Position numbers and translations under genes: made by a program. DNA of 64,000 bases from Escherichia phage RB32: sequence record NC_008515.1. One strand, written 5' to 3'. The notes beneath the pieces were generated by a model that saw only the letters and a list, made by a program, of their open reading frames with translations, made no database searches and was not told where the DNA came from. Shown here one piece after another: positions 16,086 through 61,463 of this stretch (positions are counted from its first letter, which is position 1; every line of letters begins with the position of its first letter).

Positions 16086-17050
16086 TGTATTCTTTAGAGG
16101 AATTTAATAATCAAGCAATAAACGCAGATTTCCAACGTAATAATATGTTTAGCTGCGTTTTTGCAACAACTCCATCAACTAAAAGCTCTTCGTTGATAAG
16201 TTCAATTAGCAACTTTTCTTATAATAACTTGGGCCTAAATTCAGATTGGTTAGGATTAACCCAAGGTGATATTAATCAGGGAATTACCACGCTAATTACA
16301 GCTGGCACACAAAAACTGATAAGAAAATCAGGGGTTAGTAAATATCTTATTGGTGCCATGAGTCAACGTACAGTTCAAAGTTTATTAGGCTCATTTACAG
16401 TTGGTACATATTTAATTGACTTCTTTAACATGGCATATAACTCATCTGGATTGATGATATATTCCGTAAAAATGCCAGAGAATAGATTATCCTATGAAAC
16501 TGACTGGAACTATAATTCTCCTAATATTCGTATAACTGGGAGAGAATTAGACCCTTTGGTTATTTCATTTAGAATGGATTCAGAAGCTTGTAACTATCGT
16601 GCAATGCAAGACTGGGTTAACTCTGTTCAAGACCCAGTAACTGGATTACGTGCTTTGCCACAAGATGTCGAGGCAGATATTCAGGTTAATCTTCATTCTC
16701 GTAATGGATTGCCTCATACTGCGGTGATGTTCACCGGATGCATTCCAGTGTCAGTGAGCGCTCCTGAGTTATCATATGATGGAGATAACCAAATAACTAC
16801 ATTTGATGTTACTTTTGCGTATAGAGTCATGCAGGCTGGAGCAGTTGATAGACAAGCTGCGCTTGAATGGCTTGAATCTGCTGCTATAAATGGTATTCAA
16901 AGCGTTCTCGGAAATAGTGGAGGTGTTACTGGACTATCTAATTCGCTTTCACGACTCAGTAGATTAGGGGGAACTGCAGGAAGCATTTCAAACATTAATA
17001 CTATGACAGGAATTGTCAATTCGCAAAGTAAAATATTAGGAGCAATATAA
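16085..17050 (+). CDS. 54: Baseplate tail-tube initiator gp54
   Basis: 321 aa, T4 gp54 position and approximate length. Confidence 0.92.
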   Translation: MYSLEEFNNQAINADFQRNNMFSCVFATTPSTKSSSLISSISNFSYNNLGLNSDWLGLTQGDINQGITTLITAGTQKLIRKSGVSKYLIGAMSQRTVQSLLGSFTVGTYLIDFFNMAYNSSGLMIYSVKMPENRLSYETDWNYNSPNIRITGRELDPLVISFRMDSEACNYRAMQDWVNSVQDPVTGLRALPQDVEADIQVNLHSRNGLPHTAVMFTGCIPVSVSAPELSYDGDNQITTFDVTFAYRVMQAGAVDRQAALEWLESAAINGIQSVLGNSGGVTGLSNSLSRLSRLGGTAGSISNINTMTGIVNSQSKILGAI

Positions 17051-17054
17051 CAAT

Positions 17055-17072
17055 GGGGACCTTTCGGTCCCC
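17055..17072. terminator. Stem-loop GGGGACC-tttc-GGTCCCC after gene 54
   Basis: Perfect 7-bp hairpin followed by atatttttattt on the plus strand; also downstream of the minus-strand 96-aa ORF. Confidence 0.55.
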
Positions 17073-17078
17073 ATATTT

Positions 17079-17369
17079 TTATTTACGGAATGAAATGAAA
17101 GCAGCAACTGAAGCAACTAAACTGTCTTCAATATAAACTTCAATTTTTACCGGAGCTTCTGACTCGAATTTACCTGTTACTACACCCTGAAAAATACTTT
17201 CAGTCTGTTCTGGCTTTGAAAAATTTTCAGAAGGAAAAATTCCGAACTTTTTATCTGTTCCAAAAATTTTAATAAATTCATCGTAAACTGCTTCATTAAA
17301 AGCATTATCAGCAGGAATAACGCCTTCAACTACAAGTTCTTGACCTAAAAAGCGTAAAGAAGATTTCAT
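17079..17369 (-). CDS. Hypothetical protein, 96 aa (position of T4 alt.-3)
   Basis: ORF preceded by its own early promoter, leader and SD (the 54-bp element at 17377..17430). Confidence 0.6.
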   Translation of the reverse strand: MKSSLRFLGQELVVEGVIPADNAFNEAVYDEFIKIFGTDKKFGIFPSENFSKPEQTESIFQGVVTGKFESEAPVKIEVYIEDSLVASVAAFISFRK

Positions 17370-17376
17370 TTTGTGT

Positions 17377-17430
17377 TCCTCATGTTATGTCAGTAAGACT
17401 ACTATAACACAACACGAGGGACTTGTAAAC
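17377..17430 (-). repeat. 54-bp element, copy 1: early promoter (GTTTAC-N18-TATAGT) + leader + GAGGA SD
   Basis: Identical base-for-base to 32743..32796; sits between the Alt-paralogue stop and the 96-aa ORF start. Confidence 0.7.
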
Positions 17431-19487
17431 TACATTTTGAACTTTTTAGACATTCCGTTGATGTTAACCAAAGAAGCTAAGATTTGAGAAACTTCATTTT
17501 CCTCTTCTTTTGATTCTTCTACAAGGAATTGATTAAATCCAGTCATTGGACGAACTTCACCAGTTTCCATTAGATGGTCGCCATCATATACTGATTCCTC
17601 TAATTGTTCAGAAGGAGGAACGATTGTACCTTCGATTAGATACTTGTTATAAGCAGTTTCTTTCATAAAGTACGTACTTACTTTATTAATCTTCAGTAAA
17701 ATTCCACGCGGTAGAATAACTTCAGCTTCTGATGGAAATCCTGATAAATGACCTGGAACGATAACTTTGATTCGCTCAGCTCCTTTAATTACCATACCCA
17801 CGCTAGTTTCAGCATCTTCATTGGCATATGTAGAATGACTACCCGTATGCATTAAATCTTCTGCATCAACGGAACCTTCTCCTTCACCAGAAAATACTGC
17901 GCCGGAATCATCTAGAGCCATATAGTTTTTACCATGCTCACCGAAGATATTTGGTTTAAGCGATGTGGATACGAAGTTCTTGAAATAGAACATTTTATTT
18001 TCAATGTTATGACGCAAAGTTTTAAAGGTAACTTCTTGTCCACGATAAAGCGTAGTTCCTGGAGGAAGAACCGAACCTTTAGCGAATGCAGAATCCAACG
18101 TCTCGATGTGCTTAATGGCACGTTCCATATATTCTTCACGGGTAGAATCTGGTTTACCCAAAAGGAACGAGTTCATTTCAACATATGAATCTGCACAATA
18201 ATCTTCAATTACATCAGATTCAGCTTGAGTTAATCCTTTTGGAGTTACTTCGGTGCTTGCGTATTCATATGCCTGAGCGGCAGATTCATTAATCAATTTA
18301 TAAATGCCATTCATTACAAATTGAATAATAGCTGTCTTTTCATCTGGCGTAGCTTTAGAACCTTTAACCAAATCATTGATAATTTTCTTAATAACATCAA
18401 AGCTATTAGAAATATTAATATCAGCAAGATCGCTTAAAATTTTATCAGTTTTATAATCAAAGAATTCTTTATTCTTTAAATATTCTTGAGAACCTTGATA
18501 TGTTATATCGCTCTGCAACTTGATGGATGGATCACGTAAACGTGCATGGGCTAATGCAATATGATTTCGGAAGTTTTCTAGTTCATAATCGCTAGATTTA
18601 AAACGAGAAGCACTCCTCATACCACCGATAGCTCCTTTGCTGAAGTTTGAACCAATCTGAATAACGCCAGAGTTCATTGGTCCTTCTGCTTTATATACCG
18701 GAACTTTAGATTCAAACTCTTGATATTTCTTAGCAGCGAAGCTATCACCCTGAAGTGAAGCATCAACAGTAGAATATTGAGCTTGTGCTGCTAATCGACG
18801 ACTAATTTTAGTTTTCTGAATAACAGCTTGGTCCGTGCGCTTATCATTTTCTAAAGCAATAGAAGCAGCAACAGCGACAGCTTTAGGAACAGCATTACCT
18901 GTTTTAACGTCTACATAAACATCACCAACCTTTGATTCAACTTTTGTGAATAACTCAGTTGAAATAGGAGGTACACCTGGAATGTCTTCTAAATTGGCAT
19001 TTTTACGGTAAACCATAATATATGCATACTTTTTATCATAGTCCCAGATTTCCTTTAAAAGAACATATCGACCTGCTCCTTTAGTACGTACTAAACGGTC
19101 AGCAATAACTTGCATTTGACGAGCAGCGCCATTTGTTTTACTTTTTAGTACGCGGAATAGGCATGCGTCAATTTTATACTGCTTCATTGTTTGAAGAGCA
19201 GTATCAAAAACAGCATTAATGACACCAATTGGATTTCCACCCAAGTTTCTAAGCTTAACCAGCGATAATTTCTCGTTGACACCTATCATTACGATATGCA
19301 TCATTTTATCGCCTGGCTTAACGTTTTTATTCGTATCACCACCAGAGGTGTATGTACAAAATCTAAATCCAGGAAGCACGCTTTCTTCGCCGGCTTGAAT
19401 AGCAAAAATTTGTGGTATTTTATGCTTAGGATTTAAGTTAACAACCGGCGCCGAAGCGCCGTCAAATAATTCTGTAATAAGTTCCAT
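17430..19487 (-). CDS. Alt-family ADP-ribosyltransferase, second paralogue (685 aa)
   Basis: N-terminus MELITELFD... parallels Alt; C-terminal half carries LYRGQ, FVSTSL and SEAEV (R / STS / E-x-E ART-type motifs); start 3 nt after the alt stop with SD AAGGA. Confidence 0.85.
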   Translation of the reverse strand: MELITELFDGASAPVVNLNPKHKIPQIFAIQAGEESVLPGFRFCTYTSGGDTNKNVKPGDKMMHIVMIGVNEKLSLVKLRNLGGNPIGVINAVFDTALQTMKQYKIDACLFRVLKSKTNGAARQMQVIADRLVRTKGAGRYVLLKEIWDYDKKYAYIMVYRKNANLEDIPGVPPISTELFTKVESKVGDVYVDVKTGNAVPKAVAVAASIALENDKRTDQAVIQKTKISRRLAAQAQYSTVDASLQGDSFAAKKYQEFESKVPVYKAEGPMNSGVIQIGSNFSKGAIGGMRSASRFKSSDYELENFRNHIALAHARLRDPSIKLQSDITYQGSQEYLKNKEFFDYKTDKILSDLADINISNSFDVIKKIINDLVKGSKATPDEKTAIIQFVMNGIYKLINESAAQAYEYASTEVTPKGLTQAESDVIEDYCADSYVEMNSFLLGKPDSTREEYMERAIKHIETLDSAFAKGSVLPPGTTLYRGQEVTFKTLRHNIENKMFYFKNFVSTSLKPNIFGEHGKNYMALDDSGAVFSGEGEGSVDAEDLMHTGSHSTYANEDAETSVGMVIKGAERIKVIVPGHLSGFPSEAEVILPRGILLKINKVSTYFMKETAYNKYLIEGTIVPPSEQLEESVYDGDHLMETGEVRPMTGFNQFLVEESKEEENEVSQILASLVNINGMSKKFKM

Positions 19488-19490
19488 GAT

Positions 19491-21584
19491 TTATCCTTGA
19501 ACGAACTTGTAAGGCATGTTTGTAATATCTATGCAAGACGCAATAATTCCAAGAGATGATTCTACTTTCTGTTTAACATTTGATGAAACAAATGATGCAA
19601 AGTCAACTCTGTCTTCTACTTCAATATCACCTGTCATTGCAACTACTTCGCCGGTTTCCATTAGACAGTCTCCGTCATAAATTACCGATTCGGTGAGTTC
19701 TTCTGTGGTCATAACTTCAGCTTGAATGAGTTTTGTATTATTAGATGTTGTTCCGTCATTATTAGAAGCATCAGTTATTTTATTAACTTTGACCATCAAC
19801 CCGCGCGGTAGAATAACTTCAGCTTCTGTTGCTATTCCGAGACTTCCTGGATATACAACATTAACTTTATGAGCTCCATCAATTGCCCATCCTATTTGAA
19901 CTTTAACGTATTCAGGATTTTCTTTATACGCTCTTATTTCGTTTGGATTAATAGTTATTCCTTCTTCATTTTTATCAACTGTTAATTCGTTACGAGCTTC
20001 TGGTTCTAAAAGACCAATACCAGCATGTGTAATTCCAAAACGTCCAAAAATGATAGGAGTTAAAGAAGTAGATACAAAATTTCTGAAATAGAACACTTTA
20101 TTTTTAACTAGTGCTTCGTATATAGGAGCAGTCATACTTTGAGCACGATAAACTGTAATGCCTTCCGGTATGCGGTCACCATTTTCAAAAGCTGAATCTA
20201 AATTATTTATAGCAGATTCAATTTCTTTTTCACTCATTACATCATATCGTTCTGGATTGTAACGACCTAAAAGAAGATTATTAATGTCTGTATATCCTGA
20301 ACCACAATACTCTCTAATACCGCGCTTTTGTGATGGAGTATATTTAGAACCATCACGGGCAATAGTAATATCAATCATTGGACCAGCACCAATTCCAGAA
20401 AAGCTATAAATCATTCGTTTGAGGAATTTAGTTTTTGCTGCATTCCAGGCATTTTTAGTTATTTCTCCCCAGACTTCATCTGGTTGCCCTTTACGAGTTT
20501 TATTATGTTTATCAAGCCAATTATCTTTATATTCTTCAAAGAATTTATTAACAGCTGCTGCGTATTTCTCTAAACATTTTATTGAAGTAGTTGGCTCATT
20601 TTTTATCGCGTTAAAAATTACATCTTTAATTTTTTCGGAAACTTCATCAACCTCACTTTTTGAAAAGAATTTATAGTCATAGTGAAGTTCATTCGCAGTT
20701 CCTTCGGCAATAATTTTTGCTGCCTTAGTTTTAGAAGCTAATGAATTAATTCCAAGCTTCATTTCTTCTGCTTCGGGAATTAAAGGAGCGGTAGCAGGTT
20801 TATTGAAATTAGCTGCGGTAGATTCATACTTCTGGAATAATTCACTTTCAAACCTAGAAGATTCCAATGATTGACTTTGCGCAATTGCTCTACGGGAAAT
20901 TTTAACTTTAACGATTACAGCTTGGTCAGAACGTTTATCATTTTCTTGCGCAATAGATGCTGCAATTGCCTCATTTTTAGTTACTTGGGCTCCAGTATCT
21001 TTATTGATATAAACATCACCGACCTTCGATTCAACTTTAGTAAAGAGCTCGGTACTAATTTCCGGAACTCCTGGAATGTCTTCTAGTGATACATTTTTGC
21101 GATGTATAAGAATATATGCATACTTTTTATCATAATCCCAGAGTTCCTTAAGAAGGACGTATCTACCACCTGAACGACTACGGATAAGTCTATCAGCAAT
21201 AACTTGAATTTGTCGAGCTTGGCCAGCAGTTTTAGACTTAAGAATACGAAGCATACAAGCATCAATTTTATACTGACGCATCGTTTGCATTGCAACAGTA
21301 AAAACTGAATTGATATAATTAATTGGGCTTGGACCAAGACCTTTTAATTTAGCAATTGAACCTTTAGCAGTTAATGTAAAAGGAACAATATGCATCATTT
21401 TATCGCCCATTTTTAAATCGCGATTAGTATCACCTCCAGATGTATAGGTACATAAACGAAAGCCTGGTTGTTCAATTGCATCATCAACATGAACTGAAAA
21501 AATTTGCGGTATTTTCTTCTTTGGATTTAAGTTTGTAATCGGAAGAGTAGTATCTTCGTCAAATAATTCTGTAATGAGTTCCAT
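19491..21584 (-). CDS. alt: Alt ADP-ribosyltransferase (packaged internal head protein)
   Basis: 697 aa from the second Met (MELITELFDEDTTLPITNLNPKKK... as T4 Alt); VYRAQ, FVSTSL, TEAEV motifs. Confidence 0.92.
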   Translation of the reverse strand: MELITELFDEDTTLPITNLNPKKKIPQIFSVHVDDAIEQPGFRLCTYTSGGDTNRDLKMGDKMMHIVPFTLTAKGSIAKLKGLGPSPINYINSVFTVAMQTMRQYKIDACMLRILKSKTAGQARQIQVIADRLIRSRSGGRYVLLKELWDYDKKYAYILIHRKNVSLEDIPGVPEISTELFTKVESKVGDVYINKDTGAQVTKNEAIAASIAQENDKRSDQAVIVKVKISRRAIAQSQSLESSRFESELFQKYESTAANFNKPATAPLIPEAEEMKLGINSLASKTKAAKIIAEGTANELHYDYKFFSKSEVDEVSEKIKDVIFNAIKNEPTTSIKCLEKYAAAVNKFFEEYKDNWLDKHNKTRKGQPDEVWGEITKNAWNAAKTKFLKRMIYSFSGIGAGPMIDITIARDGSKYTPSQKRGIREYCGSGYTDINNLLLGRYNPERYDVMSEKEIESAINNLDSAFENGDRIPEGITVYRAQSMTAPIYEALVKNKVFYFRNFVSTSLTPIIFGRFGITHAGIGLLEPEARNELTVDKNEEGITINPNEIRAYKENPEYVKVQIGWAIDGAHKVNVVYPGSLGIATEAEVILPRGLMVKVNKITDASNNDGTTSNNTKLIQAEVMTTEELTESVIYDGDCLMETGEVVAMTGDIEVEDRVDFASFVSSNVKQKVESSLGIIASCIDITNMPYKFVQG

Positions 21585-21607
21585 CATATCCTCTCTAGTG
21601 TTTATTC

Positions 21608-21615
21608 TATTTATA
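21608..21615 (-). promoter_or_regulatory. Late promoter TATAAATA (minus strand) upstream of alt
   Basis: Plus-strand TATTTATA about 24 nt upstream of the alt ATG. Confidence 0.55.
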
Positions 21616-21620
21616 AAATT

Positions 21621-21637
21621 AAAGGCCCGAAGGCCTT
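21621..21637 (-). terminator. Stem-loop AAAGGCC-UUCG-GGCCUUU after the 62-aa ORF
   Basis: Perfect hairpin on the minus transcript followed by A/U-rich sequence. Confidence 0.5.
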
Positions 21638-21825
21638 TAATAATCTATTGGTAAGAGAGTACGATATATTTCAAACTTTGGACCTTTTTCATAGGCATCA
21701 AATGTTTCTGTGAATTTATTATAAGCATATGCATCTATAAATTCAATCATGATTTGTGATACAGAAGTAGAAACATCTCCACCTTCTTTTTGAGCCACGA
21801 CAATTGTTTCTAAGTAAGCTTTCAT
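21637..21825 (-). CDS. Hypothetical protein, 62 aa
   Basis: ORF whose ATG overlaps the gene 30 stop (ATGA). Confidence 0.5.
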   Translation of the reverse strand: MKAYLETIVVAQKEGGDVSTSVSQIMIEFIDAYAYNKFTETFDAYEKGPKFEIYRTLLPIDY

Positions 21826-23282
21826 AGACCAGTTACCTCATGAAAATCACCAAATACATCTTCGAATGTATTAGCTTTAGTTTTATCTTCACGTAAACGA
21901 ATCGCAATCGGAAGAAATAATTTAACGTAATCAGTGCGGCCATCAGATTTTAACCAACCGTTGCATTCGCACTCTAGAATTTTTCCAATATAATAATTTT
22001 GGTTTTCCATGATGCGAGTACGGTCAAGTTCATGTGATTTTACACCGGCTTTATCTTTTAAGCCTGAACCAGCATTTACTTTAATTTTTCCACACTCTGA
22101 TTCAAGAATAAATCCACCTGCTTTAGTAGGGTCTTTACGGTGAGGATAAATTCCTACAATTTTTAAATCAACATCAATTACTTCTTTAAATTTATAGAGA
22201 TTTTTTGAACGAGCATTTTCCCACAATCCATCGGTATTTTTGAGAATAATACCTTCAAGACCTTGGTCAATATACTTTTTGTAAATAACCTTAGCTTCAT
22301 CTAGGTTATTTACTACCTGGTTTTCAATTAAAATTACTTTATCATAGCCTGATGTCATTTGTTCTAGTTTAGAAAAACGTACATCATATTTTAAACGAAA
22401 TGCTGGAAGACCGTATACTTCTACCAACGGTACATAATCCCAGACCTGAAACTTCATGCATTGAGCTTCTTTTTCTGAAATAGTTCCTTTTAAAGATTTA
22501 TTAGCGATTCCATTAGAAGCAGTACGTGATTCAGCTACTTCTGTGAAGTCTTTAGCTTTGCTAATTTCAGGAGTGTCAAAAAGAAAATCTAGGCCTTCTG
22601 ATTCCTTTTTAACTTGCTCATGGTATACCAATTCGCCATCAATTAACACACCTTCTGGATGAATCTGGCGGGCTTCAGCAGTCATTTTGATTAACTCTTC
22701 CTTAAGAAGATCTAATCCTAGGTATTCATTACCAGCTCGTGATAAAAGACGAACATCATCTAATTCATCACCTCTGACTTCAGCAAAGCACCGAGCTCCA
22801 TCAGCTTTTAATTGGGCAAAGGCTGGAAATTTGATATTCTTATTAATGCCTTTTTCATCATAAGAACTTGCCAGCATTTGAGGTTGTTCAGGAATTAAAC
22901 CTGGCCAAACTTTGTTTGCAATAGATACTGATGCACCGCATTCAAGGTCTCGCATCATCACCCGACGCAAAACTTCAACATCATCTTTTTTACCGTCAGT
23001 AATATATCCAGTTAATTCCTCAATTGCCGCATTTCCAGTCAATTTCCGAGTAGCTAACGTGAATTCAATGAAGTCAAGCATATCGGTAAGAGTCAACATT
23101 CCAAAACTCTGGGTAGCAATACCAGGTTTAGGCCATTTCTTGATATAATACTGTAACCCACGAGAATAAGTCAGACGATATACTCGTTTAAGCAATTCAT
23201 TATCTTTATTCTTTTCAAGAATTGCTTGCTTCTGCTTAGTTGAACCAATAGATGCTATTTCGTTCAGAATTTTAAGAATCAT
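21822..23282 (-). CDS. 30: ATP-dependent DNA ligase gp30
   Basis: 486 aa, MILKILNEIASIGSTKQKQAILEKNKDNELLKRVY..., adenylation motif KADGAR; matches T4 DNA ligase. Confidence 0.95.
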   Translation of the reverse strand: MILKILNEIASIGSTKQKQAILEKNKDNELLKRVYRLTYSRGLQYYIKKWPKPGIATQSFGMLTLTDMLDFIEFTLATRKLTGNAAIEELTGYITDGKKDDVEVLRRVMMRDLECGASVSIANKVWPGLIPEQPQMLASSYDEKGINKNIKFPAFAQLKADGARCFAEVRGDELDDVRLLSRAGNEYLGLDLLKEELIKMTAEARQIHPEGVLIDGELVYHEQVKKESEGLDFLFDTPEISKAKDFTEVAESRTASNGIANKSLKGTISEKEAQCMKFQVWDYVPLVEVYGLPAFRLKYDVRFSKLEQMTSGYDKVILIENQVVNNLDEAKVIYKKYIDQGLEGIILKNTDGLWENARSKNLYKFKEVIDVDLKIVGIYPHRKDPTKAGGFILESECGKIKVNAGSGLKDKAGVKSHELDRTRIMENQNYYIGKILECECNGWLKSDGRTDYVKLFLPIAIRLREDKTKANTFEDVFGDFHEVTGL

Positions 23283-23548
23283 TGTTCATCCTTTAGAGTT
23301 TGGTTTACAGCTCTATTATAAATCAATTCATCATTAAGCTCAGTCAAAGACCTGTGGTACGTGGTTCTAACTTTATTTCCTTGCATCCAGTGCTTGACGT
23401 AAATGAAACCTTGCTCTACACATTTTTTAAAAATTCGTTCGTCTTTTTGAGCTCGGAATTCTGGATTGCATCTAAAAAATTGATTTACGTGACCGTAATC
23501 ACGTGTAGTATTACCTTCATTTTCATAAATAGTGTGAACGACAAACAT
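23279..23548 (-). CDS. Hypothetical protein, 89 aa (30.1 position)
   Basis: ORF coupled (ATGA overlap) to gene 30 and to the next ORF. Confidence 0.6.
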   Translation of the reverse strand: MFVVHTIYENEGNTTRDYGHVNQFFRCNPEFRAQKDERIFKKCVEQGFIYVKHWMQGNKVRTTYHRSLTELNDELIYNRAVNQTLKDEQ

Positions 23549-24387
23549 TAGAATGCTCCTTGGAAAATATTATCACCACTAGTAGGTCTATTATACAAAT
23601 ACTCTATGCCACCAGGTTTAATATAGTTCCATGTCTGAAACGGATGTGTCTGATATGGATGATATAGATGATTATAAGGATTAAATCCAGGAGTTCTCCA
23701 GGTAGTGTTCCAAGGAAAAGAATCGTTTTTAATCATCTTTTCAATTACATCTTTTATAGCTTTTTCACTATCAAAACTTTCTTTATTTTCCTTCGATGGA
23801 AAAAGCTTATTCTCGACATCATTCCATGTATAAACTCGCTGAGCAGTTTTTGGAATACTGTCACGCTCCCCTCGAGCCATCCAATAAACAGGAACATTTA
23901 ATATTTCACTCGCATGATCGCAGTGATGAGCGAGATCGTCAATATAACAAATTACGTTATATTTCTCTTTTGCCTTTTTGAACAACTCTTCTTTTGAAGA
24001 ATCATGACCACACATCATTACTTCTGAGAAGGCACCAGGAAAAAGAGCATTCAAATTAAATTGGCGATTCAACAGAGCGTCAATAGAATCACCTAATGCT
24101 GTAACAGCTACAAAATTATAATCTTCTTTTAATTTGTTAATTACACACAGGGCATCTTTATACGGAGACAAGTAACGAATAAAATCTGAACGATTGTATT
24201 TTTCAATTAACTTGACGCCAAGTTCTTCGTCACAATTAAAGAGTTTACCTGGAGAAATAAATTTCTCATCTTGGATCATTTTTAAAATATGTTCTAACGG
24301 AAGATTATATTTCTGGGCAAAATAAGGAAGGCCTGATTGCCAGCTTAAACATACTCCATCAATATCAGTCAAAATAGTTGGCTTCAT
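23548..24387 (-). CDS. HAD-superfamily hydrolase-like protein, 279 aa (30.2 position)
   Basis: N-terminal motif ILTDIDGV (hhhDxDGV, HAD motif I) and later YIDD acidic motif. Confidence 0.6.
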   Translation of the reverse strand: MKPTILTDIDGVCLSWQSGLPYFAQKYNLPLEHILKMIQDEKFISPGKLFNCDEELGVKLIEKYNRSDFIRYLSPYKDALCVINKLKEDYNFVAVTALGDSIDALLNRQFNLNALFPGAFSEVMMCGHDSSKEELFKKAKEKYNVICYIDDLAHHCDHASEILNVPVYWMARGERDSIPKTAQRVYTWNDVENKLFPSKENKESFDSEKAIKDVIEKMIKNDSFPWNTTWRTPGFNPYNHLYHPYQTHPFQTWNYIKPGGIEYLYNRPTSGDNIFQGAF

Positions 24388-24848
24388 AGAGAGTCTCTTA
24401 ATAGATTTAACACATCAATAAATTCAGCTTCGGTTAGTATTGTATCATCTTTTGTTAGACCACTAGCCATGCTGTGCTTCAAAACTTTTCCTTTCGAGGC
24501 TTGTAATGCATCACGAAAGCCCCTGTTTTGGATCGCTGCTTCAAAATATGCATTTGTGTATAATTCTTTCCACGCTGGAGAGTATCTTGAAAATGGAACT
24601 CCAAGCCAGAACAACGTGCCACGGTCCTGAGCTCTAGCATAAGCTCGTCCAGCTTGTTGGGCGGCAAGCCCGGATAAACCAAATATACGACGTTGTTGTT
24701 CAACATTTTTCACTTTGCATCCTTGGAGGAATCCTTCAAGACCTCCGAATTGAATACCATCCATGACGAAAGGCCATTGGGCGAAATTGCTTAATGCACA
24801 TGATGGCCATCTAAAATTGCTTCTAATCTCTAACTCAGACATTTTCAA
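24384..24848 (-). CDS. YbiA/NADAR-like protein, 154 aa (30.3 position)
   Basis: Motifs LSNFAQWPFVMDGIQF...EGFLQGCKV and ALQASKGKVLKHS resemble the YbiA/DUF1768 (NADAR) signature FSNFAxWPIxVDG...EHYFQAxKF...LVEHT. Confidence 0.55.
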   Translation of the reverse strand: MKMSELEIRSNFRWPSCALSNFAQWPFVMDGIQFGGLEGFLQGCKVKNVEQQRRIFGLSGLAAQQAGRAYARAQDRGTLFWLGVPFSRYSPAWKELYTNAYFEAAIQNRGFRDALQASKGKVLKHSMASGLTKDDTILTEAEFIDVLNLLRDSL

Positions 24849-25041
24849 TACTTATAATTTCAACATCAGCCCAATGACCATAGCAAGGAAGACGAAATTC
24901 AACTGGCCAGTTAGGGTCCTTTTCTAATATAATAGACTTAACTTGTGGTTCTTCATGTTCATCGGTATATGGACCTTTATATGTTACTTTATATGTGACC
25001 TTAATGTACTGAATTCCAAAAATCTTATTAATTATATTCAT
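24835..25041 (-). CDS. Hypothetical protein, 68 aa
   Basis: ORF in the 30.x small-gene run. Confidence 0.45.
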   Translation of the reverse strand: MNIINKIFGIQYIKVTYKVTYKGPYTDEHEEPQVKSIILEKDPNWPVEFRLPCYGHWADVEIISIENV

Positions 25042-25235
25042 ACTAATTCCTTTAATCCGTAAATAGGAGATAATTCATCACCCATACGAATGTCTTCATT
25101 TCCATCTACCCAGGAAACAATATAAGCCTCTTTTATTTGAACACCACACCATTTAAATGGAGGTAGAACCTTAGAAATTAATCCAGGTATACCAACTCCC
25201 TTTAATTCAACAGTTTGACCTAAAAAGAATTTCAT
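25038..25235 (-). CDS. Hypothetical protein, 65 aa
   Basis: ORF coupled by ATGA overlaps to neighbours. Confidence 0.45.
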   Translation of the reverse strand: MKFFLGQTVELKGVGIPGLISKVLPPFKWCGVQIKEAYIVSWVDGNEDIRMGDELSPIYGLKELV

Positions 25236-25522
25236 TAGAACCTCATTTGAAAACCGTGCGATTTAACATTACCGCCGCCAATATCAGAAATGTTAATTTC
25301 ACGCGCAATTGAAGGGTCAATGTCAATTTCACGATTGAGTTTAGTGATAGCTAAAGTATCACGCCCATTTACTGTACGAAATTCTAAAGGACAAACCACA
25401 TCAACGTAATTTTTAATCGATTCACTGGTAGGTTGCAAATGTGCAGAAAGGTCTTTGGGCGCCTTTGAGAAAACAACTTCACAGAAATTTTTGCGGGTGT
25501 CAAAATAAGTAGTCATAAACAT
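25235..25522 (-). CDS. Hypothetical protein, 96 aa
   Basis: Start moved to Met-18 of the track ORF (SD GAGGAAA upstream); the longer ORF would run through the stem-loop at 25540..25553. Confidence 0.5.
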   Translation of the reverse strand: MFMTTYFDTRKNFCEVVFSKAPKDLSAHLQPTSESIKNYVDVVCPLEFRTVNGRDTLAITKLNREIDIDPSIAREINISDIGGGNVKSHGFQMRF

Positions 25523-25539
25523 AATGTTTTCCTCAGTAA

Positions 25540-25553
25540 GGGGCCGAAGCCCC
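25540..25553 (-). terminator. UUCG stem-loop GGGGC-UUCG-GCCCC
   Basis: Hairpin immediately after the stop of the 121-aa ORF; no strong U-tract, may be an RNA-stability element. Confidence 0.4.
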
Positions 25554-25562
25554 TGTTTTATT

Positions 25563-25928
25563 TTAAATATCAAATTCGTTAAGAACTACATCAAAGATTG
25601 CTTCAAGATGCTCAGGTTTAGCTCTGTTACTCAGAATATGACGAATCCAAGTTTTAACCAAAAGCTTGCGATTAGCACCATTCCAGCAAGGATGAGTCCC
25701 TAAATCGCGTTGACGAAAATCATCATCCAAAGCAATTTTGAAGTTGGAACCTTCCATAGTGATGGAAACTGTAATACCATTTTCAAATCGCATATAAACG
25801 TAGTTAGGAGTCATATACTGTTCAATTTCGCATACTGATCCATTTTGATGTTTCCAAAGGCAGATGGTATCAATAGAACCTGCAATACCATTAGAAACAT
25901 ATTTACGTTCAAAGTTGATGTAGTTCAT
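25563..25928 (-). CDS. Hypothetical protein, 121 aa
   Basis: ORF in the 30.x run. Confidence 0.55.
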   Translation of the reverse strand: MNYINFERKYVSNGIAGSIDTICLWKHQNGSVCEIEQYMTPNYVYMRFENGITVSITMEGSNFKIALDDDFRQRDLGTHPCWNGANRKLLVKTWIRHILSNRAKPEHLEAIFDVVLNEFDI

Positions 25929-25996
25929 TTTTATTCTCCGAGATGTTTAATTGCAGTACAGGTATATAATATCATATCCTGTACCAAAGTAAACAA

Positions 25997-26329
25997 TTAT
26001 TTTACTATTTTCCAATGCTGCATGTCAAGTTTACCAACTTTTTTCATCTTCTCAATCAAACGTTCGGCACGTTGGCGAGCTGTAACATAATGCCATTCGC
26101 CTAATTCATTTTGTTCAATTTTTCCAACGATTACTGTATTCAATTCATAAATCCAACCAGTAAAGAAATTATGAACTTGAATTGTAAAGGTGAAATCTGT
26201 TCCCATACCTTCTGTTGTTTCTACTTCAATAATATCACCTTCAACTGCCATTAAGAACCACATAGTTTCATCATATTTACCATTGAAGCATTTAGTTTTA
26301 ACTGTAGCGTTCAGATTAATCGTTTTCAT
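25997..26329 (-). CDS. Hypothetical protein, 110 aa
   Basis: ORF with an early promoter upstream. Confidence 0.55.
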   Translation of the reverse strand: MKTINLNATVKTKCFNGKYDETMWFLMAVEGDIIEVETTEGMGTDFTFTIQVHNFFTGWIYELNTVIVGKIEQNELGEWHYVTARQRAERLIEKMKKVGKLDMQHWKIVK

Positions 26330-26356
26330 TTTATTCTCCTTTGTTTGTGTAAGATA

Positions 26357-26386
26357 ATACTATCACAAAGGAACTATACTGTAAAC
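26357..26386 (-). promoter_or_regulatory. Early promoter GTTTAC-N18-TAGTAT
   Basis: Minus-strand match to T4 early promoter consensus about 28 nt upstream of the 110-aa ORF. Confidence 0.45.
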
Positions 26387-26414
26387 AACTTTATGTAATC
26401 TTTGGAAAATAAAA

Positions 26415-26434
26415 AGGACTCCCGAAGGAGTCCT
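26415..26434 (-). terminator. Rho-independent terminator AGGACUCC-UUCG-GGAGUCCU + U-run
   Basis: 8-bp stem with UUCG loop followed by UUUUUAUUUU on the minus transcript, just after the basic small ORF. Confidence 0.65.
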
Positions 26435-26438
26435 CAAC

Positions 26439-26615
26439 TTATGCTTTCTGCTTACCAAAACGAGAAGCATCATCTCGAAGAACCGCACGTGCTCGGCGCA
26501 TGATCTTCTCAACAGTTTGATTGATACGAGAGTTCGACCCACGCTTGTAGCCAGCGCGTTTAGAATCACCAACTTTCTTTTCAACTGCTTTCTTTGCTTT
26601 AGCTTGTTTTGCCAT
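26439..26615 (-). CDS. Small basic protein, 58 aa (30.9 position)
   Basis: MAKQAKAKKAVEKKVGDSKRAGYKRGS... Lys/Arg-rich; start taken at the internal Met of the 72-aa track ORF. Confidence 0.5.
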   Translation of the reverse strand: MAKQAKAKKAVEKKVGDSKRAGYKRGSNSRINQTVEKIMRRARAVLRDDASRFGKQKA

Positions 26616-26736
26616 TATAAATTCTCTTTTAAATGAAAATGCAGGACTTATTGGCATTGCCTGCGCAAGCCCTCAAGGGGAACATAGGTTTTTGGATATT
26701 TAACGACCAGGATAACCATAAACCTCGTCAACATAA

Positions 26737-26985
26737 TTACTTCAATGTTACCACAAAGTGACGAACTGCTTTTCGTGCAGCAGAAGCCAAAGGCTTAGCA
26801 TATTTAAGTTCATCTTTTTCCTGAAGCTCAGCAGCTAATGCGGTTTGAGCAGGATTCAGATGTTTGAAATAACGCAGAATTTCAAGAGCTTCGGCTTCAA
26901 CATCAATAGATGCGCCATAGTTTTCGTGACCATTATTCCATGCGTTTCGTTGCAGTTCAAGAGCGTGTTGTAATTGTTTAATCAT
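26737..26985 (-). CDS. rIII: rIII lysis-inhibition accessory protein
   Basis: 82 aa, MIKQLQHALELQRNAWNNGHENYGASIDVEAEALEILRYF..., matches T4 rIII. Confidence 0.9.
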   Translation of the reverse strand: MIKQLQHALELQRNAWNNGHENYGASIDVEAEALEILRYFKHLNPAQTALAAELQEKDELKYAKPLASAARKAVRHFVVTLK

Positions 26986-27123
26986 TTAAAAATTCTCGTT
27001 AGAGATTAAAACTCGGTAGTCACGTTCTTCTGAATTTCATCTTCTTTCGACAGATCTCTCAGTTGTAGACTACCACATAGAATTGTTCGGTTAACTTATT
27101 ATTCCGACACCCAATTCATATTA

Positions 27124-27131
27124 TTATTTAT
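27124..27131 (-). promoter_or_regulatory. Late-promoter-like TATAAATA (minus strand) between gene 31 and rIII
   Basis: Plus-strand TATTTATA immediately after the gene 31 stop, about 140 nt upstream of rIII. Confidence 0.4.
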
Positions 27132-27132
27132 A

Positions 27133-27468
27133 TCACTTATAAAGACATGGAATAGCTTTATAGTGACAAGTAACGAATTTTTGTTTAATTTCTTTTGGCT
27201 GCTTAAGACCCAGAGCTACAAAAGGATGCGGAACATTTCGAATTTGACCAACTGGAAGAGAAGTCAAATCACCAACTTCGCAGAAACCTTCAGGAACATC
27301 AGGACCGACAGAGTGAACTACACACAGTTCAGGAACTTCACCTTGAACACGTTTACCGATAATAAGTCCTGATTCTGTAACTTCTTCATCACCGGCTTGT
27401 GCAGGTTCAGAAACTAAAATAACATATTCACCGACAGCACGAATTGGTAGCTGTTGTACTTCAGACAT
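27133..27468 (-). CDS. 31: Co-chaperonin gp31 (GroES analogue)
   Basis: 111 aa, [40 protein letters not shown]..., matches T4 gp31. Confidence 0.93.
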
Positions 27469-27524
27469 CGTTTTTCCTTTTTGTTAACAGATGAATTAAT
27501 AATAACAAATAATTCTTAAAGCAT

Positions 27525-27833
27525 TTATTTACCAATAAATTGGAGCAAATGCTCAACTTTCATACCATTAACGGAAATCAATTTGTCAATAGAAAAACCT
27601 CGCCATGCACCAAGCTCAACATCAAACACTGGAATCATGTCAGTAGATTCTTTCCGAGTAGATTCAGTCAATTTACCAGTTTGCATGGTTGGCATAAAGT
27701 CTGCATCACGAGTACCTTTCATAGTACGAATAGTACCATCAGACTTTTCAAAAACTACGTTTGAAACACCCATGGACAATTTAGTTTTCAAAATTTCACG
27801 AATTGCTACTTTCTGCTCAGTTGTCAGTTTCAT
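27525..27833 (-). CDS. Hypothetical protein, 102 aa (31.1 position)
   Basis: ORF following gene 31 on the minus strand. Confidence 0.55.
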   Translation of the reverse strand: MKLTTEQKVAIREILKTKLSMGVSNVVFEKSDGTIRTMKGTRDADFMPTMQTGKLTESTRKESTDMIPVFDVELGAWRGFSIDKLISVNGMKVEHLLQFIGK

Positions 27834-28070
27834 TTATTTACCTATTACAGTTTTAATATGAGTTGTTCCACGTTCTTTAAGGGTGGAAAGTAATTTTTGG
27901 CATTTTTCTAAATCAGATTTCCAACTATATGGTTTATCAATACAAACCCAATTTGTCTTATAATACTGTTTCCATTTAGAGAAAAAATATTTCTTATACT
28001 CTACAGCAAACGAGATGTTCTCATTAGAATAAGAACTAATTGCTGTGAGCTTTACCAAACGAAATTTCAT
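27834..28070 (-). CDS. Hypothetical protein, 78 aa (31.2 position)
   Basis: ORF coupled to cd. Confidence 0.5.
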   Translation of the reverse strand: MKFRLVKLTAISSYSNENISFAVEYKKYFFSKWKQYYKTNWVCIDKPYSWKSDLEKCQKLLSTLKERGTTHIKTVIGK

Positions 28071-28651
28071 TATTCACCGCAGAATTCGTTGATATTTTCC
28101 CAGTTTAACTTATTCAAGTTTTTCTTAGGAACATTAAACACTTCAATACCTGCATTTCGCAGAATATCATCCCAGCCAGGTTTATTTTTATCGTATGTTT
28201 CACAATAAACCAGCTTTTTAATACCAGATTGAGCTATCGCTTTTGCGCAATCTGGACAGGGAGAAAGTGTTACATACATAGTAGCACCTTCAATAGAAGA
28301 ACCATTTCGTGCAGCAAACAAAATTGCATTTAGTTCAGCATGAATTTCATTTTTAGATGACCATTCCGAGTGAGCACTACGATGTTCTTTCGCCAAGACA
28401 AAACGATCAGTTGAACCAAATGATACACATTCAGGCTTATGACCTTGAATGATAGTATGTTTAGGCTTATTCAACAACCAACCTTGCTCAGCAGCATAAT
28501 CACAACAGTTCACACCCCCTGCGGGTGAACCATTATACCCAGTAGAAATAATACGTCCATTCTTTTCAATTACTGCTCCTACCTTCCAGGAGCAACATTT
28601 TGATTCCTGCGATACTAAATATGCAATTTGAAGTACTGTACTCGCTTTCAT
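28070..28651 (-). CDS. cd: dCMP deaminase
   Basis: 193 aa with zinc-deaminase motifs HAELNAI and SPCPDCAK; matches T4 Cd. Confidence 0.93.
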   Translation of the reverse strand: MKASTVLQIAYLVSQESKCCSWKVGAVIEKNGRIISTGYNGSPAGGVNCCDYAAEQGWLLNKPKHTIIQGHKPECVSFGSTDRFVLAKEHRSAHSEWSSKNEIHAELNAILFAARNGSSIEGATMYVTLSPCPDCAKAIAQSGIKKLVYCETYDKNKPGWDDILRNAGIEVFNVPKKNLNKLNWENINEFCGE

Positions 28652-28986
28652 TTCATAATCACCAGATAAGCAGATTTAGCAGTTTCAACACGATAAATTT
28701 CGTGACGAAGTTTAGTTATACTTTTAATAACAGAACTAATTATATTCTGCCCATCTTTAAAGCGGTTTTTCTTATCAATAAAAATTGCACCAGCCATCTT
28801 TTTGTGAAGCTCAACTTGATACTTCGTCACAATAATAGCATCATACACAGAAGGATGAATACTATTCACTAAAGTATCATTCATTAAAGTTATTCTAATG
28901 AACTGTGCTGTTTCAGAATCAAGCGCTCTATGATCGCCAGTATCATTTTCAAGACAATTATCAATTATATCAGTTAAATTCATCAT
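28648..28986 (-). CDS. Hypothetical protein, 112 aa (cd.1 position)
   Basis: ORF coupled by ATGA overlap to cd. Confidence 0.5.
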   Translation of the reverse strand: MMNLTDIIDNCLENDTGDHRALDSETAQFIRITLMNDTLVNSIHPSVYDAIIVTKYQVELHKKMAGAIFIDKKNRFKDGQNIISSVIKSITKLRHEIYRVETAKSAYLVIMK

Positions 28987-29219
28987 AGTACGCCATACAC
29001 CCTTTGTGCTTCAACTAATCCATCAAAATCCAGTTTAAGATGCGATATTTGATCGCCATCACCTGGATTCACAATTACTAATACTGAACGAGGAGTTTCG
29101 GTAATAACGCGAACCGACGTTTCAGGAAATCGTTCAGAAACCTTATTTACCAATTCTTGAGCAAATAGTTTAACTTTTTCTTGGAATTCTTTAACAGTAA
29201 TTGGTTTTTCGCTTAGCAT
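28983..29219 (-). CDS. Hypothetical protein, 78 aa
   Basis: ORF coupled to neighbours. Confidence 0.5.
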   Translation of the reverse strand: MLSEKPITVKEFQEKVKLFAQELVNKVSERFPETSVRVITETPRSVLVIVNPGDGDQISHLKLDFDGLVEAQRVYGVL

Positions 29220-29740
29220 GTTGATCCTAGCTCCTTACTTTCAACGTTTTTAACTAATTTGACAGAAACTAATTCAGCATCTTGAGTAATCATTACCGGG
29301 CCTTCTTCATACTCTTCAAGATATTCTAGAGCTTTCTTTTTAGCTTCTTCCTTCGTATCAGTTTGAGCATAGATATAAAACATACAACCAGTAATACCTA
29401 CTACTTTCCACTTAATTTCTTTATCAGCTTTAATTTCAAATTTACTGACAGAATCATCTTTTTGAACTTCTTCGAAAAAAGAATATTCTAACATATAAGC
29501 AATTGAAAATAACGGGCTAACTTTATAGGATTCACCCATTACATCAACAGCTTTATACCAACAATCATCAATTTCGCGTTTAATGCTAATAACATTTTTC
29601 GCAGGATCTATTTTTACTTTAAATGAATTTTCCCCAATAAACTGGGCAATTCGTTTATTAGCCCCGCAAGTTTCATTAAAAATATCTTTATATCCAGCTT
29701 TAAAGCGATAAACCTTATCTTCTTCAAACCATTCGCTCAT
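29213..29740 (-). CDS. Hypothetical protein, 175 aa
   Basis: ORF with an early promoter upstream. Confidence 0.55.
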   Translation of the reverse strand: MSEWFEEDKVYRFKAGYKDIFNETCGANKRIAQFIGENSFKVKIDPAKNVISIKREIDDCWYKAVDVMGESYKVSPLFSIAYMLEYSFFEEVQKDDSVSKFEIKADKEIKWKVVGITGCMFYIYAQTDTKEEAKKKALEYLEEYEEGPVMITQDAELVSVKLVKNVESKELGSTC

Positions 29741-29770
29741 TTCAATTTCCTCATTTGTTTTGGTAGAGCT

Positions 29771-29800
29771 ATAATATCACAACTCTACCGTAAAGTAAAC
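29771..29800 (-). promoter_or_regulatory. Early promoter GTTTAC-N18-TATTAT
   Basis: Minus-strand consensus match upstream of the 175-aa ORF. Confidence 0.45.
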
Positions 29801-29802
29801 TA

Positions 29803-30078
29803 TTAAATTGCTTTGAATTCTGATGTCTGTGATTCAAAGCGAATGTCGCCTTTGATAACTAGCTCAGCATCAAGACCAAATACAACAATGATATGCGCGG
29901 AACCTGGATACAACGTAATGGCAATAGAATCCACCTGGTCTGGAAGCAAAGCGTTCAATACATGAGTCACTTGAGCGTGGATTCGAAGTTCAGCTGCATT
30001 ATCAAGCTTTTCAAACATGTTATTAGCGATAATTTGGCTAAACACTACTTCTACGATTTTAGAGTAAGTCGGAAACAT
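29803..30078 (-). CDS. Hypothetical protein, 91 aa
   Basis: ORF between pseT and the cd-distal genes. Confidence 0.5.
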   Translation of the reverse strand: MFPTYSKIVEVVFSQIIANNMFEKLDNAAELRIHAQVTHVLNALLPDQVDSIAITLYPGSAHIIVVFGLDAELVIKGDIRFESQTSEFKAI

Positions 30079-30142
30079 ATTTACCTCACATAATTTTCTT
30101 CAAGCCAATTAATAATATCCCAAGTTTCATGGTGCAAAGCCA

Positions 30143-31364
<1,222 letters not shown>

Positions 31365-31368
<4 letters not shown>

Positions 31369-31595
31369 TTATTTTTCTCAACCAACGATTGAATATAATC
31401 ATGCAGGTCTTTAGATGCTTTACCCCACTTATTTTGATATTCATTTTTAAGATTAGCTCGAGATTGAGCTAATAAAACATCATTAGTTGGAGGTAAAGAT
31501 TCTAACCGCTGAATCTGGCGTCCATAAATCATTGCAGCCATCTCGGATTCATAAATCAATCCTTTGAGATGTTCAAATTGATGCCATGAAATCAT
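31365..31595 (-). CDS. Hypothetical protein, 76 aa
   Basis: ORF coupled to neighbours. Confidence 0.45.
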
Positions 31596-31891
31596 TTACA
31601 TTTATCCTCTTTTAGCTCTTGACGATAATAACATATCATAGTTTTTTGGTCATGTACATATCGTTTTACATCATTAAGCCAAATACGAAATTCCTGGGAA
31701 TCTTCAAATGGCATACCGACCCAAGCTTTACCATCAATAACTTTAACTTGCCAAGATAGTTTAGCTTCATCATATGACTTTATTTGTACAGGCCAATTAG
31801 GATGAACTGTTTCTTTCTTTACTTCTAGAGGCTTTGTCGAACAACCAACTAGAAGACCAATAGATAATATTACTGCCGATAGTTTAATCAT
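31592..31891 (-). CDS. Outer-membrane lipoprotein, candidate o-spanin (Rz1 equivalent)
   Basis: Signal peptide with lipobox LLVGC (MIKLSAVILSIGLLVGCSTKP...); start overlaps the upstream membrane/coiled-coil ORF by 4 nt. Confidence 0.65.
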   Translation of the reverse strand: MIKLSAVILSIGLLVGCSTKPLEVKKETVHPNWPVQIKSYDEAKLSWQVKVIDGKAWVGMPFEDSQEFRIWLNDVKRYVHDQKTMICYYRQELKEDKCK

Positions 31892-32241
31892 TTAGAAAGG
31901 TCCTGGATGTCTTCTGCGAACTTGTTGAAGGAGTTGTTGATTTGTTTTTCAACCAATCCTGGCTTATGAGCCACCACATCCGCCTTCTTTGCATCTTTGC
32001 GCAGTTTTTCATTTTCACGCTCAATAGCAGCAATTGCCTCACGATTTTTAGTATTCATCGCATCAATATAATTATACTGAATTCGCAAATTATTTAATGC
32101 TAAAGCGTTTTCATTGGCTGTTTTTGTAATTTCAGTAACTGATGTTTCTAATCTTTCTACCTTATTTTTTAAAATAATAGATGTTCCGCCAAATGCTATT
32201 ACAAGTAATAGCAATCCAGTTGTTGTATTACTTAATTGCAT
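31888..32241 (-). CDS. N-terminally anchored coiled-coil protein, candidate i-spanin (Rz equivalent)
   Basis: N-terminal TM helix GLLLLVIAFGGTSIIL followed by a charged helical region; paired with the lipoprotein gene. Confidence 0.6.
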   Translation of the reverse strand: MQLSNTTTGLLLLVIAFGGTSIILKNKVERLETSVTEITKTANENALALNNLRIQYNYIDAMNTKNREAIAAIERENEKLRKDAKKADVVAHKPGLVEKQINNSFNKFAEDIQDLSK

Positions 32242-32738
32242 AAAGTTTTAATAACCTCTATAATATCGTCTTGAGAAAGACCGTTAATTAAAATATGATG
32301 TTCCGCCGGAGATTTAGAAATTTTAAAGCATGCCGCAACATCTTCTGCCATATCCGATGCGCTACGATTTGGATTACTAATTCCAAGACGATGTTTTCCT
32401 GTTAAAGGATTAACGATGATATAGCATTTACAGCTATTGATATGAACATTAGGTTGAGTCTGATTAATGAACACTTCACAATCATACTTAGCGAGTTGAT
32501 TTTCTAAAAAGACTTTCATCTCTTCAACCGCATCAGGAAGCATATCACGGGCTTGCTCAAGACGACGATTTCGATATTCTTTAATGGTCGTTTTCCGCTT
32601 GACTTGCTTAGCTAAATCTTTCTTAAGATCGGTGATATATCCAACTCGACGATTTCCTTTGAATACAGAAATCCCATCTGTAGTATCACCGTATGCTTCA
32701 ACGACCATTTCAGTAGTAATAAGTTGTAAATCCATCAT
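32232..32738 (-). CDS. alc: Alc, inhibitor of host transcription on cytosine DNA
   Basis: 167/168 aa (tandem ATG start), T4 alc position upstream of pseT-distal genes and downstream of rnlA. Confidence 0.8.
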   Translation of the reverse strand: MMDLQLITTEMVVEAYGDTTDGISVFKGNRRVGYITDLKKDLAKQVKRKTTIKEYRNRRLEQARDMLPDAVEEMKVFLENQLAKYDCEVFINQTQPNVHINSCKCYIIVNPLTGKHRLGISNPNRSASDMAEDVAACFKISKSPAEHHILINGLSQDDIIEVIKTLCN

Positions 32739-32742
32739 AAAG

Positions 32743-32796
32743 TCCTCATGTTATGTCAGTAAGACTACTATAACACAACACGAGGGACTTGTAAAC
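32743..32796 (-). repeat. 54-bp element, copy 2: early promoter + leader + SD in front of alc
   Basis: Identical to 17377..17430; -35 GTTTAC at 32796..32791, -10 TATAGT at 32772..32767 (minus strand). Confidence 0.7.
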
Positions 32797-32799
32797 AGC

Positions 32800-34387
<1,588 letters not shown>

Positions 34388-41395: not shown

Positions 41396-41647
41396 TTATT
41401 GTTCAATCAGTCCCATGTAAAATTCTACGTCTTCAGCATCCATACCATCGCAGTATTCATTAGCCATAAACCGCTCAAGAACTTCTAAAGGACCTTCAAT
41501 AACGATTTGAATACTCCAAAACTTAGAATCTTGTACACTTGTGATACTAAGTTCAGGATAACGATTACGAATAATTTCTTCAATATATTCAAAATCAACG
41601 ATGTCAATATCAACTTTAGCCATATTATTTTCCTCTTTAATTATCAA
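41396..41647 (-). CDS. Hypothetical acidic protein, 83 aa
   Basis: ORF downstream of an early promoter. Confidence 0.5.
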
Positions 41648-41666
41648 CAGTATTGCCGATAGTTGT

Positions 41667-61397: not shown

Positions 61398-61463
61398 TTT
61401 CTGTTCCTCCGTAGTTGATAGGGTAATAGTACCACGGAAGAACAGTCTTGTAAACAACTTTTT

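Follow-up and report, generated by a model that had tools for sequence, protein, structure and literature searches.

The genome of Escherichia phage RB32 raises the question of why two genes lying far from each other, alt.-3 and alc, are preceded by one and the same piece of DNA, and what this piece does at each place. The window, that is, the whole stretch of 64,000 nucleotides that was analysed (NC_008515.1), contains two 54-bp copies, 15.3 kb apart, whose minus-strand sequence is GTTTACAAGTCCCTCGTGTTGTGTTATAGTAGTCTTACTGACATAACATGAGGA; coordinates are given in Table 1. The perfect identity of the copies, put forward in the original prediction, was confirmed by direct comparison, and it ends abruptly on both sides, the flanking extension being 0 and 0. 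When up to three mismatches were allowed, the 54-mer matched the window at these two places only, with no third copy, and it had no match in 100 dinucleotide-preserving shuffles. Chance and assembly artefact were thus ruled out as the source of the repeat by the shuffles, the identity test and its presence in 498 phage records; indeed, a sequence that is shorter than sequencing reads and present in hundreds of independently sequenced genomes is not a product of assembly. The 401-bp regions around both copies are 100% identical to phage RB33 (Tequatrovirus, KM607001), from whose annotation the gene names around them were taken. The genes alt.-2, alt.-3, rnlA and alc are all on the minus strand. 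Each copy had been described as starting right after the stop codon of the upstream gene: more exactly, copy B starts 3 nt past the rnlA TAA, and copy A includes the last base of the alt.-2 TAG.

Table 1. Positions, in the window, of the two repeat copies, their parts and the genes around them.
Feature	Position	Strand	Basis or remark
alt.-3 CDS, 96 aa	17079..17369	-	ATG 7 nt past the repeat
Repeat copy A, cassette of promoter, hairpin and Shine-Dalgarno	17377..17430	-	alt.-2/alt.-3 interval
Shine-Dalgarno GAGGA of alt.-3	17377..17381	-	
Hairpin, copy A	17378..17419	-	predicted fold; 5′ arm positions 12-25, 3′ arm 40-53 with the Shine-Dalgarno
Predicted transcription start, copy A	17394	-	promoter geometry; A, 7 nt past the -10, repeat position 37
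Extended -10 TGtTATAGT, copy A	17401..17409	-	consensus scan
-35 hexamer TTTACA, copy A	17424..17429	-	consensus scan; the preceding G gives the T4 early consensus GTTTAC
alt.-2, full-length Alt paralogue, 2058 bp	17430..19487	-	final stop-codon base is the first repeat base
Late-promoter motif TATAAATA, just upstream of alt	21608..21615	-	motif; annotated as such in SA20RB
alc CDS, 167 aa	32232..32735	-	from the second (conserved) ATG
Repeat copy B, identical cassette	32743..32796	-	rnlA/alc interval
Shine-Dalgarno GAGGA of alc	32743..32747	-	
Hairpin, copy B	32744..32785	-	predicted fold; the alc-specific flank CTT adds about 3 more pairs to the stem
Predicted transcription start, copy B	32760	-	promoter geometry
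Extended -10 TGtTATAGT, copy B	32767..32775	-	consensus scan
-35 hexamer TTTACA, copy B	32790..32795	-	consensus scan
rnlA (gene 63)	32800..33924	-	expected origin of transcripts reading into copy B

Both copies carry the hexamers TTTACA and TATAGT, separated by a 17-bp spacer, with 10 of 12 matches to the canonical hexamers and a TG extended -10. The proposed arrangement of an early promoter, a leader and the Shine-Dalgarno GAGGA is supported by the consensus scan at both sites; the promoter had been described with an 18-nt spacer, a value obtained by counting from GTTTAC, while the distance from TTTACA is 17 nt. Canonical T4 early promoters comprise an UP element, the -35 GTTTAC, a TGn and the -10 (PMC2988021), and the repeat resembles them in GTTTACA, in the 17-bp spacer, in the TG extended -10 and in the general leader consensus. 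It differs from them in two respects: its spacer is complementary to the leader, whereas the spacers are usually unconstrained, and the whole 54 bp are duplicated. A differential RNA-seq set for T4, with 150 start sites, exists (bioRxiv 10.1101/2024.04.04.588121).

The sequence GAGGA closes the repeat, 7 nt from the ATG of alt.-3 and 7 nt from the annotated ATG of alc. Of the two distances given originally, the 7 nt to the 96-aa ORF are right, and the 4 nt to alc are superseded, as the conserved alc ATG is also 7 nt away. In phage UFV10 the ATG that lies 4 nt past copy B, the first of two adjacent ones, is replaced by ATA (L028, rnlA-alc spacer), which shows that the second is the functional start of alc; the alignment of Alc homologues across genera fits this annotated second ATG. 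Another ATG is found inside the repeat itself, in CATGAGGA (17377-17384 and 32743-32750, minus strand), where it opens a mini-ORF of 4-5 codons; in both copies the TGA stop of this mini-ORF and the ATG downstream share bases (ATGA). The mini-ORF lacks its own ribosome-binding site and its ATG is not conserved in other genera; it was dismissed and, on these sequence grounds, is probably meaningless.

The complementarity between spacer and leader, which the original prediction had missed, is the key anatomical feature of the repeat. Positions 12-25, in the promoter spacer, are predicted to pair with positions 40-53, in the leader including the ribosome-binding site, to give an 18-bp hairpin in which the -10 hexamer is carried by a 2-nt bulge and a 4-bp apical stem. 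The minimum free energy is -23.3 kcal/mol at alt.-3 and -27.7 kcal/mol at alc (z of -3.9 and -4.4, respectively), and none of 200 shuffles folds as stably as either hairpin. The predicted transcription start, at about repeat position 37, falls downstream of the whole 5′ arm. According to partition function calculations, the energy needed to open the ribosome-binding site is 10.9 kcal/mol for alt.-3 and 10.1 kcal/mol for alc in an RNA begun 80 nt upstream, and 1.7 and 1.0 kcal/mol, respectively, in an RNA that begins at the predicted start. A scan of window positions 17000-33200 against Rfam returned no relevant known RNA family.

These features suggest a mechanism by which the same leader would behave differently according to where its transcript begins. 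The host sigma-70 RNA polymerase would read G-TTTACA, the 17-bp spacer and TGt-TATAGT, and would start about 7 nt downstream, giving a transcript with a leader of about 25 nt and with GAGGA exposed 7 nt before the start codon; this RNA, begun at the cassette promoter, would lack the 5′ arm and stay open. RNAs started upstream, and reaching the cassettes via rnlA or via the late genes alt and alt.-2, would have both arms and could fold into the 18-bp hairpin, which would bury the ribosome-binding site. Alc and Alt.-3 would then be translated only from their own immediate-early transcripts. That the hairpin confines the translation of the two proteins in this way, as modelled from the predicted folds, is judged slightly better than an even chance.

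Whether the hairpin has been maintained by selection was addressed at alc, by collecting the rnlA-alc spacers of other T4-like genera: six were obtained from the phage collection and 42 from IMG/VR by means of an Alc profile, which reached 42 loci where scans with single proteins had given just 5 close relatives each. The distance from GTTTACA to the ATG is constant, at 60-64 nt, and in most lineages the bases just after GTTTACA are complementary to the ribosome-site region, the sequence of the arms varying by lineage. The 5′ arm in the promoter spacer and the 3′ arm in the ribosome-site region are, respectively, TCTCCATTTGGTT and AACCAAATGGAGA in Karamvirus, TCTCCGTTTAGTT and AACCAAACGGAGA in Gelderlandvirus, TCCTCATCAG and CTGATGAGGA in Jiaodavirus, TCTCCTCAT and ATGAGGAGA in Dhakavirus, and CCTCTCGTTTTT and AAAAACGAGAGG in an IMG/VR locus (L053). 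The duplex of spacer and leader reaches -15 to -24 kcal/mol in 12 of 18 lineage representatives, while shuffling of the spacer gives about -6 (p <= 0.004 each); in 12 of the 18, no leader pairs better with the spacer than the cognate one. When the sequences are placed in register by promoter-spacer position, two to four kinds of canonical pair are seen, among 14 representatives, at 15 of the 16 positions of the stem, a count that uses the partners from the predicted fold of each sequence itself and so leans towards structure. This covariation across genera, seen in the sequences compared, indicates that the alc hairpin is selected and not accidental.

The remaining six of the 18 representatives do not have full masking, so masking is not indispensable for alc. 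In two of them (L050 and L057) a gap of 2-3 nt separates the end of the predicted hairpin from the ribosome-binding site, and an additional locus (L067) is of the L050 type; the other four (Mosigvirus-like and some other lineages) have just a small palindrome inside the spacer. Such a palindrome, wholly contained in the promoter spacer, represents a second type of stem-loop, exemplified by CCAC-AAGGACT-GTGG (61948 of the window, minus strand; also L023-L027, L020 and L056). This type precedes alt.-3 in other genera and alc in Mosigvirus; the alc promoter of Mosigvirus is thus similar to promoters of the alt.-3 type, the opposite of what is seen in Tequatrovirus. A further variant of this interval occurs in Gaprivervirus of the VR25/VR20 type (L018, L042, L043 and L070), where an extra 77-aa ORF is present between rnlA and alc, with a leader hairpin, GGTTCCATCA...TGATGAGGACC, that covers its ribosome-binding site. 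As this hairpin is located downstream of the -10, it would form also in the transcripts of the promoter itself.

In a time-course study of T4, alc and alt.-3 are both early at the RNA and at the protein level, alt is classed as late, alt.-1 and alt.-2 as middle, and rnlA as giving early RNA and late protein (PMC9697503). Co-regulation of the two genes, as originally suggested, is plausible in the light of these classes, both genes being early and their upstream neighbours belonging to other classes. The late-promoter motif just upstream of alt is the likely source of late transcripts that run through alt and alt.-2 towards alt.-3, and the terminator scan did not find a terminator between alt.-2 and alt.-3. 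The expression classes of the neighbours, the late-promoter motif and the absence of a terminator in this interval together lead to the expectation of read-through RNA at both cassettes, where a device that blocks its translation would make sense. The T4 expression classes support an active early promoter boundary and co-regulation, and leave masking as a prediction of the folding calculations. As for the genes around copy A, RB33, T6, PP01 and other phages have a full-length second Alt-like ADP-ribosyltransferase of 685 aa, alt.-2; in T4 just the remnants alt.-1 and alt.-2 are found, and the T4 alt.-2 reading frame extends into the repeat. Alt.-3 is dispensable in T4, and mutants with a C-terminal extension of the protein escape the CmdTAC defence by blocking the degradation of CmdA (PMC11618068).

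The repeat has most of the features that define the regulatory cassettes known in T4-like phages as PeSL, for promoter-early stem-loop (Arbiol et al. 2010, PMC2839356; Comeau et al. 2014, PMC4122927). Among their published subclasses are stem-loops "between -35 and -10" or "overlapping the -10", and their repeats within a genome serve as homologous exchange sites. Like PeSLs, the two copies span the interval from stop codon to ATG, with a one-base overlap with the alt.-2 stop in copy A, and they contain a sigma-70-like early promoter, recognised by sequence match (TTTACA-17-TATAGT), in front of genes that are early in T4; they also have a stable predicted stem-loop that overlaps the promoter (18 bp, enclosing the -10, z of about -4) and a ribosome-binding site at the 3′ end (GAGGA, 7 nt, ATG). 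Unlike PeSLs, the repeat is present in two copies per genome in the 498 records, and not as a dense array around dispensable ORFs in hyperplastic regions, its copies flank essential genes, and no indel or mini-circle is associated with it. Other differences concern the stem, which is AT-rich, without G/C tracts or a terminator tail, and whose 3′ arm is the ribosome-binding site, pointing to translational masking over termination. Moreover, the stem-loops of T4 and PST are placed just upstream of the promoter by Comeau et al. 2014 (PMC4122927), whereas the hairpin of the repeat overlaps it.

The second known system to which the repeat can be compared is that of the T4 genes e, soc, 49 and I-TevI, in which the ribosome-binding site is held in a helix on upstream-started transcripts, and the RNA from an internal promoter, devoid of the 5′ arm, is translatable (PMC3014915). 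Similarly, the ribosome-binding site of the repeat is paired in the read-through RNA, with a computed opening cost of 10-11 kcal/mol, and the promoter lies inside the hairpin, with a predicted start past the 5′ arm. The internal promoters of those genes are late and delay translation, in contrast to the promoter of the repeat, which is immediate-early and would, in the proposed model, limit translation to the first minutes. The repeat already fits the described PeSL cassettes and the hairpins that hide ribosome sites, and does not amount to a new kind of mechanism; either the pair or the hairpin may already have been noted in the T4 literature.

The stem-loop could instead act mainly on transcription, as a terminator, an attenuator or a 3′ stabiliser of the rnlA and alt.-2 RNAs, its overlap with the ribosome site being incidental. 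A terminator or attenuator role is what the authors of the PeSL studies propose; in a transcriptional fusion, one stem-loop of RB49/phi1 cut lacZ expression by an amount similar to that of a strong terminator, the annotators of SA20RB labelled the alt.-3 hairpin as a rho-independent terminator (WebGeSTer), and the two or three lineages in which the hairpin ends just before the ribosome-binding site would agree with this function. However, neither hairpin has a U tract behind it, and the ribosome-binding site itself makes up the 3′ arm in 12 of 18 lineages, which is expected under masking but not under termination. Judged by the presence of a G+C-rich stem and a U tract, the intrinsic terminator was rejected, the tails being AACACAAAAUG and CUUUAUGAUG and the scan giving 0 terminator-like sites at both copies. 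A mainly transcriptional role is thus regarded as unlikely. Transcriptional and translational roles are compatible and not mutually exclusive and, since a PeSL stem-loop lowered a transcriptional fusion, part of the effect of the hairpin could be on transcription or on RNA stability, next to the masking of the ribosome site that is favoured here.

The other alternatives concern the history of the pair. The perfect identity of the copies, shared by RB33, had been taken as a sign of recent transfer, and a cassette transferred or duplicated in this particular phage would explain it. This explanation was refuted by comparison with other phages: a blastn search of the 54-mer against 50,697 phage records found 498 records with 995 places, all at least 90% identical, with two places per genome in all but one of the records. 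T4 has both copies, with a one-base difference in the leader, and T6 also has both; about 495 records encode an Alc at least 90% identical to that of RB33, in agreement with the 498 records of the repeat. From its occurrence throughout these records, the pair is no younger than the ancestor of the sequenced Tequatrovirus, and identical copies are seen in several other genomes too, RB33 simply carrying the commonest haplotype at both sites. An origin of the pair in this phage is, therefore, almost inconceivable.

For a pair of this age, the identity of the copies may reflect exchange between them, or the selection of the same optimal sequence at both sites with recurrent mutation and no exchange of DNA. 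Both copies were tabulated in 14 Tequatrovirus genomes, a small sample picked for diversity. Six of the 16 variant alleles occur at both sites; five genomes have TACAGT at the alc site, and GBLB0003 has it at both. More variants are shared than chance would give, with a hypergeometric p from 6e-6 to 0.02, according to the variant space assumed. Parallel mutation draws support from the concentration of the variation at positions 11-19 and 27-34, and from the upper value (p = 0.02), which applies if the variant space is limited to the observed sites and makes the overlap marginal. Against it, the linked pair 29A+32A (TATAATAATC) is found at either site or both: PP01 and UFV10 have it twice, once at each site, and P8 and a ZN18-like genome have it only at alt.-3. 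Moreover, none of the 54 positions shows a fixed site-specific difference in the 14 genomes, though the duplication predates the radiation of the genus, and the mean number of differences per 54 positions between sites of different genomes, 2.8, is similar to that within the same site (2.2 for alc-alc and 3.2 for alt.-3-alt.-3), the value within a genome being 2.3. Parallel mutation is, on balance, improbable. The shared variants form the pattern expected from occasional gene conversion, and not from strict homogenisation, as far as can be read from these sequences, and gene conversion, already invoked originally, fits the polymorphisms common to both sites. The same genomes were less informative on the hairpin: one compensatory change was observed, C15-to-T with G50-to-A in phage GBLB0003, and roughly half of the variants in the stem weaken a pair, so that the data within the genus alone would not establish the structure.

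The proposal that the repeat is a substrate for recombination is reasonable as regards gene conversion; rearranged genomes were absent among the 14 that were read, gene order being constant in all of them. Genes 30 and 31 sit between the two copies and are essential; a crossover deletion between the copies would remove both.

The comparison with other genera suggests how the alt.-3 copy originated. In Gaprivervirus, Dhakavirus, Mosigvirus, Marfavirus and Karamvirus, alt.-3 has an early promoter whose spacer contains a palindrome of the type CAC-AAGGAA-GTG, and in these five genera a pairing of the spacer with the ribosome-binding site was not found. Their alt.-3 promoters begin with GTTTACAA and most of them end with AACATGAGGA, the very sequences found at the two ends of the repeat. 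The presence of the alc hairpin in 12 of 18 representatives of other genera, together with an ordinary alt.-3 promoter in five genera, indicates that the alc cassette replaced the alt.-3 promoter: most likely, as judged from this distribution, the interior of the latter was exchanged for the alc version in the Tequatrovirus ancestor. The replacement probably took place through recombination between the consensus ends GTTTACAA and AACATGAGGA common to both promoters, and the hairpin architecture is taken as ancestral at alc across many T4-like genera. A full second copy of the alc cassette was not found in Karamvirus or Dhakavirus: in BLAST searches Karamvirus has mostly a single place for it, and the extra places of a Dhakavirus-like genome share just about 27 nt of the consensus from the -10 to the ribosome site.

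Taken as a whole, an early cassette of the PeSL kind, with masking of read-through RNA, copying from alc to alt.-3 and subsequent gene conversion, is considered the best explanation of the repeat and a fairly probable one. A bolder formulation, which falls somewhat short of an even chance and is offered tentatively, is that an ancient, covarying "transcript-origin gate" limits Alc, and in Tequatrovirus also Alt.-3, to its own immediate-early promoter, inverting the e/soc paradigm, and that this gate was copied 15 kb away and has been kept in step by gene conversion spanning essential genes. The repeat would thus offer a testable case in which T4-like phages decouple translation from incoming transcription, the promoter spacer acting as the anti-ribosome-site strand, and the alc/alt.-3 pair a clear natural case of a regulatory cassette that was moved to a second site and later made uniform by gene conversion; the pair also bears on the modular shuffling of PeSLs outside hyperplastic regions. 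In practical terms, the 54-bp repeat is a homology trap in T4 engineering or in the deletion of alt.-3, as in the CmdTAC studies, and changes in the promoter spacer may alter the translation of read-through RNA.

Pairing between promoter spacer and ribosome site was also observed at other places of the window, of whose 10 consensus early cassettes four in all have it to a significant extent. In the ndd.4 cassette (61395-61455, minus strand) the spacer CTGTTCTTCCGTGGT pairs with ACTACGGAGGAACAG, which includes the ribosome-binding site, with an energy of -23 kcal/mol, the value after shuffling of the spacer being -7.7 (p = 0.003); published examples of PeSL swap include the ndd.4/ndd.5 region. 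At 30.8 (26327-26386, minus strand) the spacer of the early promoter pairs with the downstream ribosome-binding site (p = 0.007), and at frd.3 (41620-41696, minus strand) the pairing is weaker and is seen in the predicted full fold only. The occurrence of the same architecture before ndd.4, 30.8 and, in a weaker form, frd.3 suggests that the repeat is one instance of a recurrent design.
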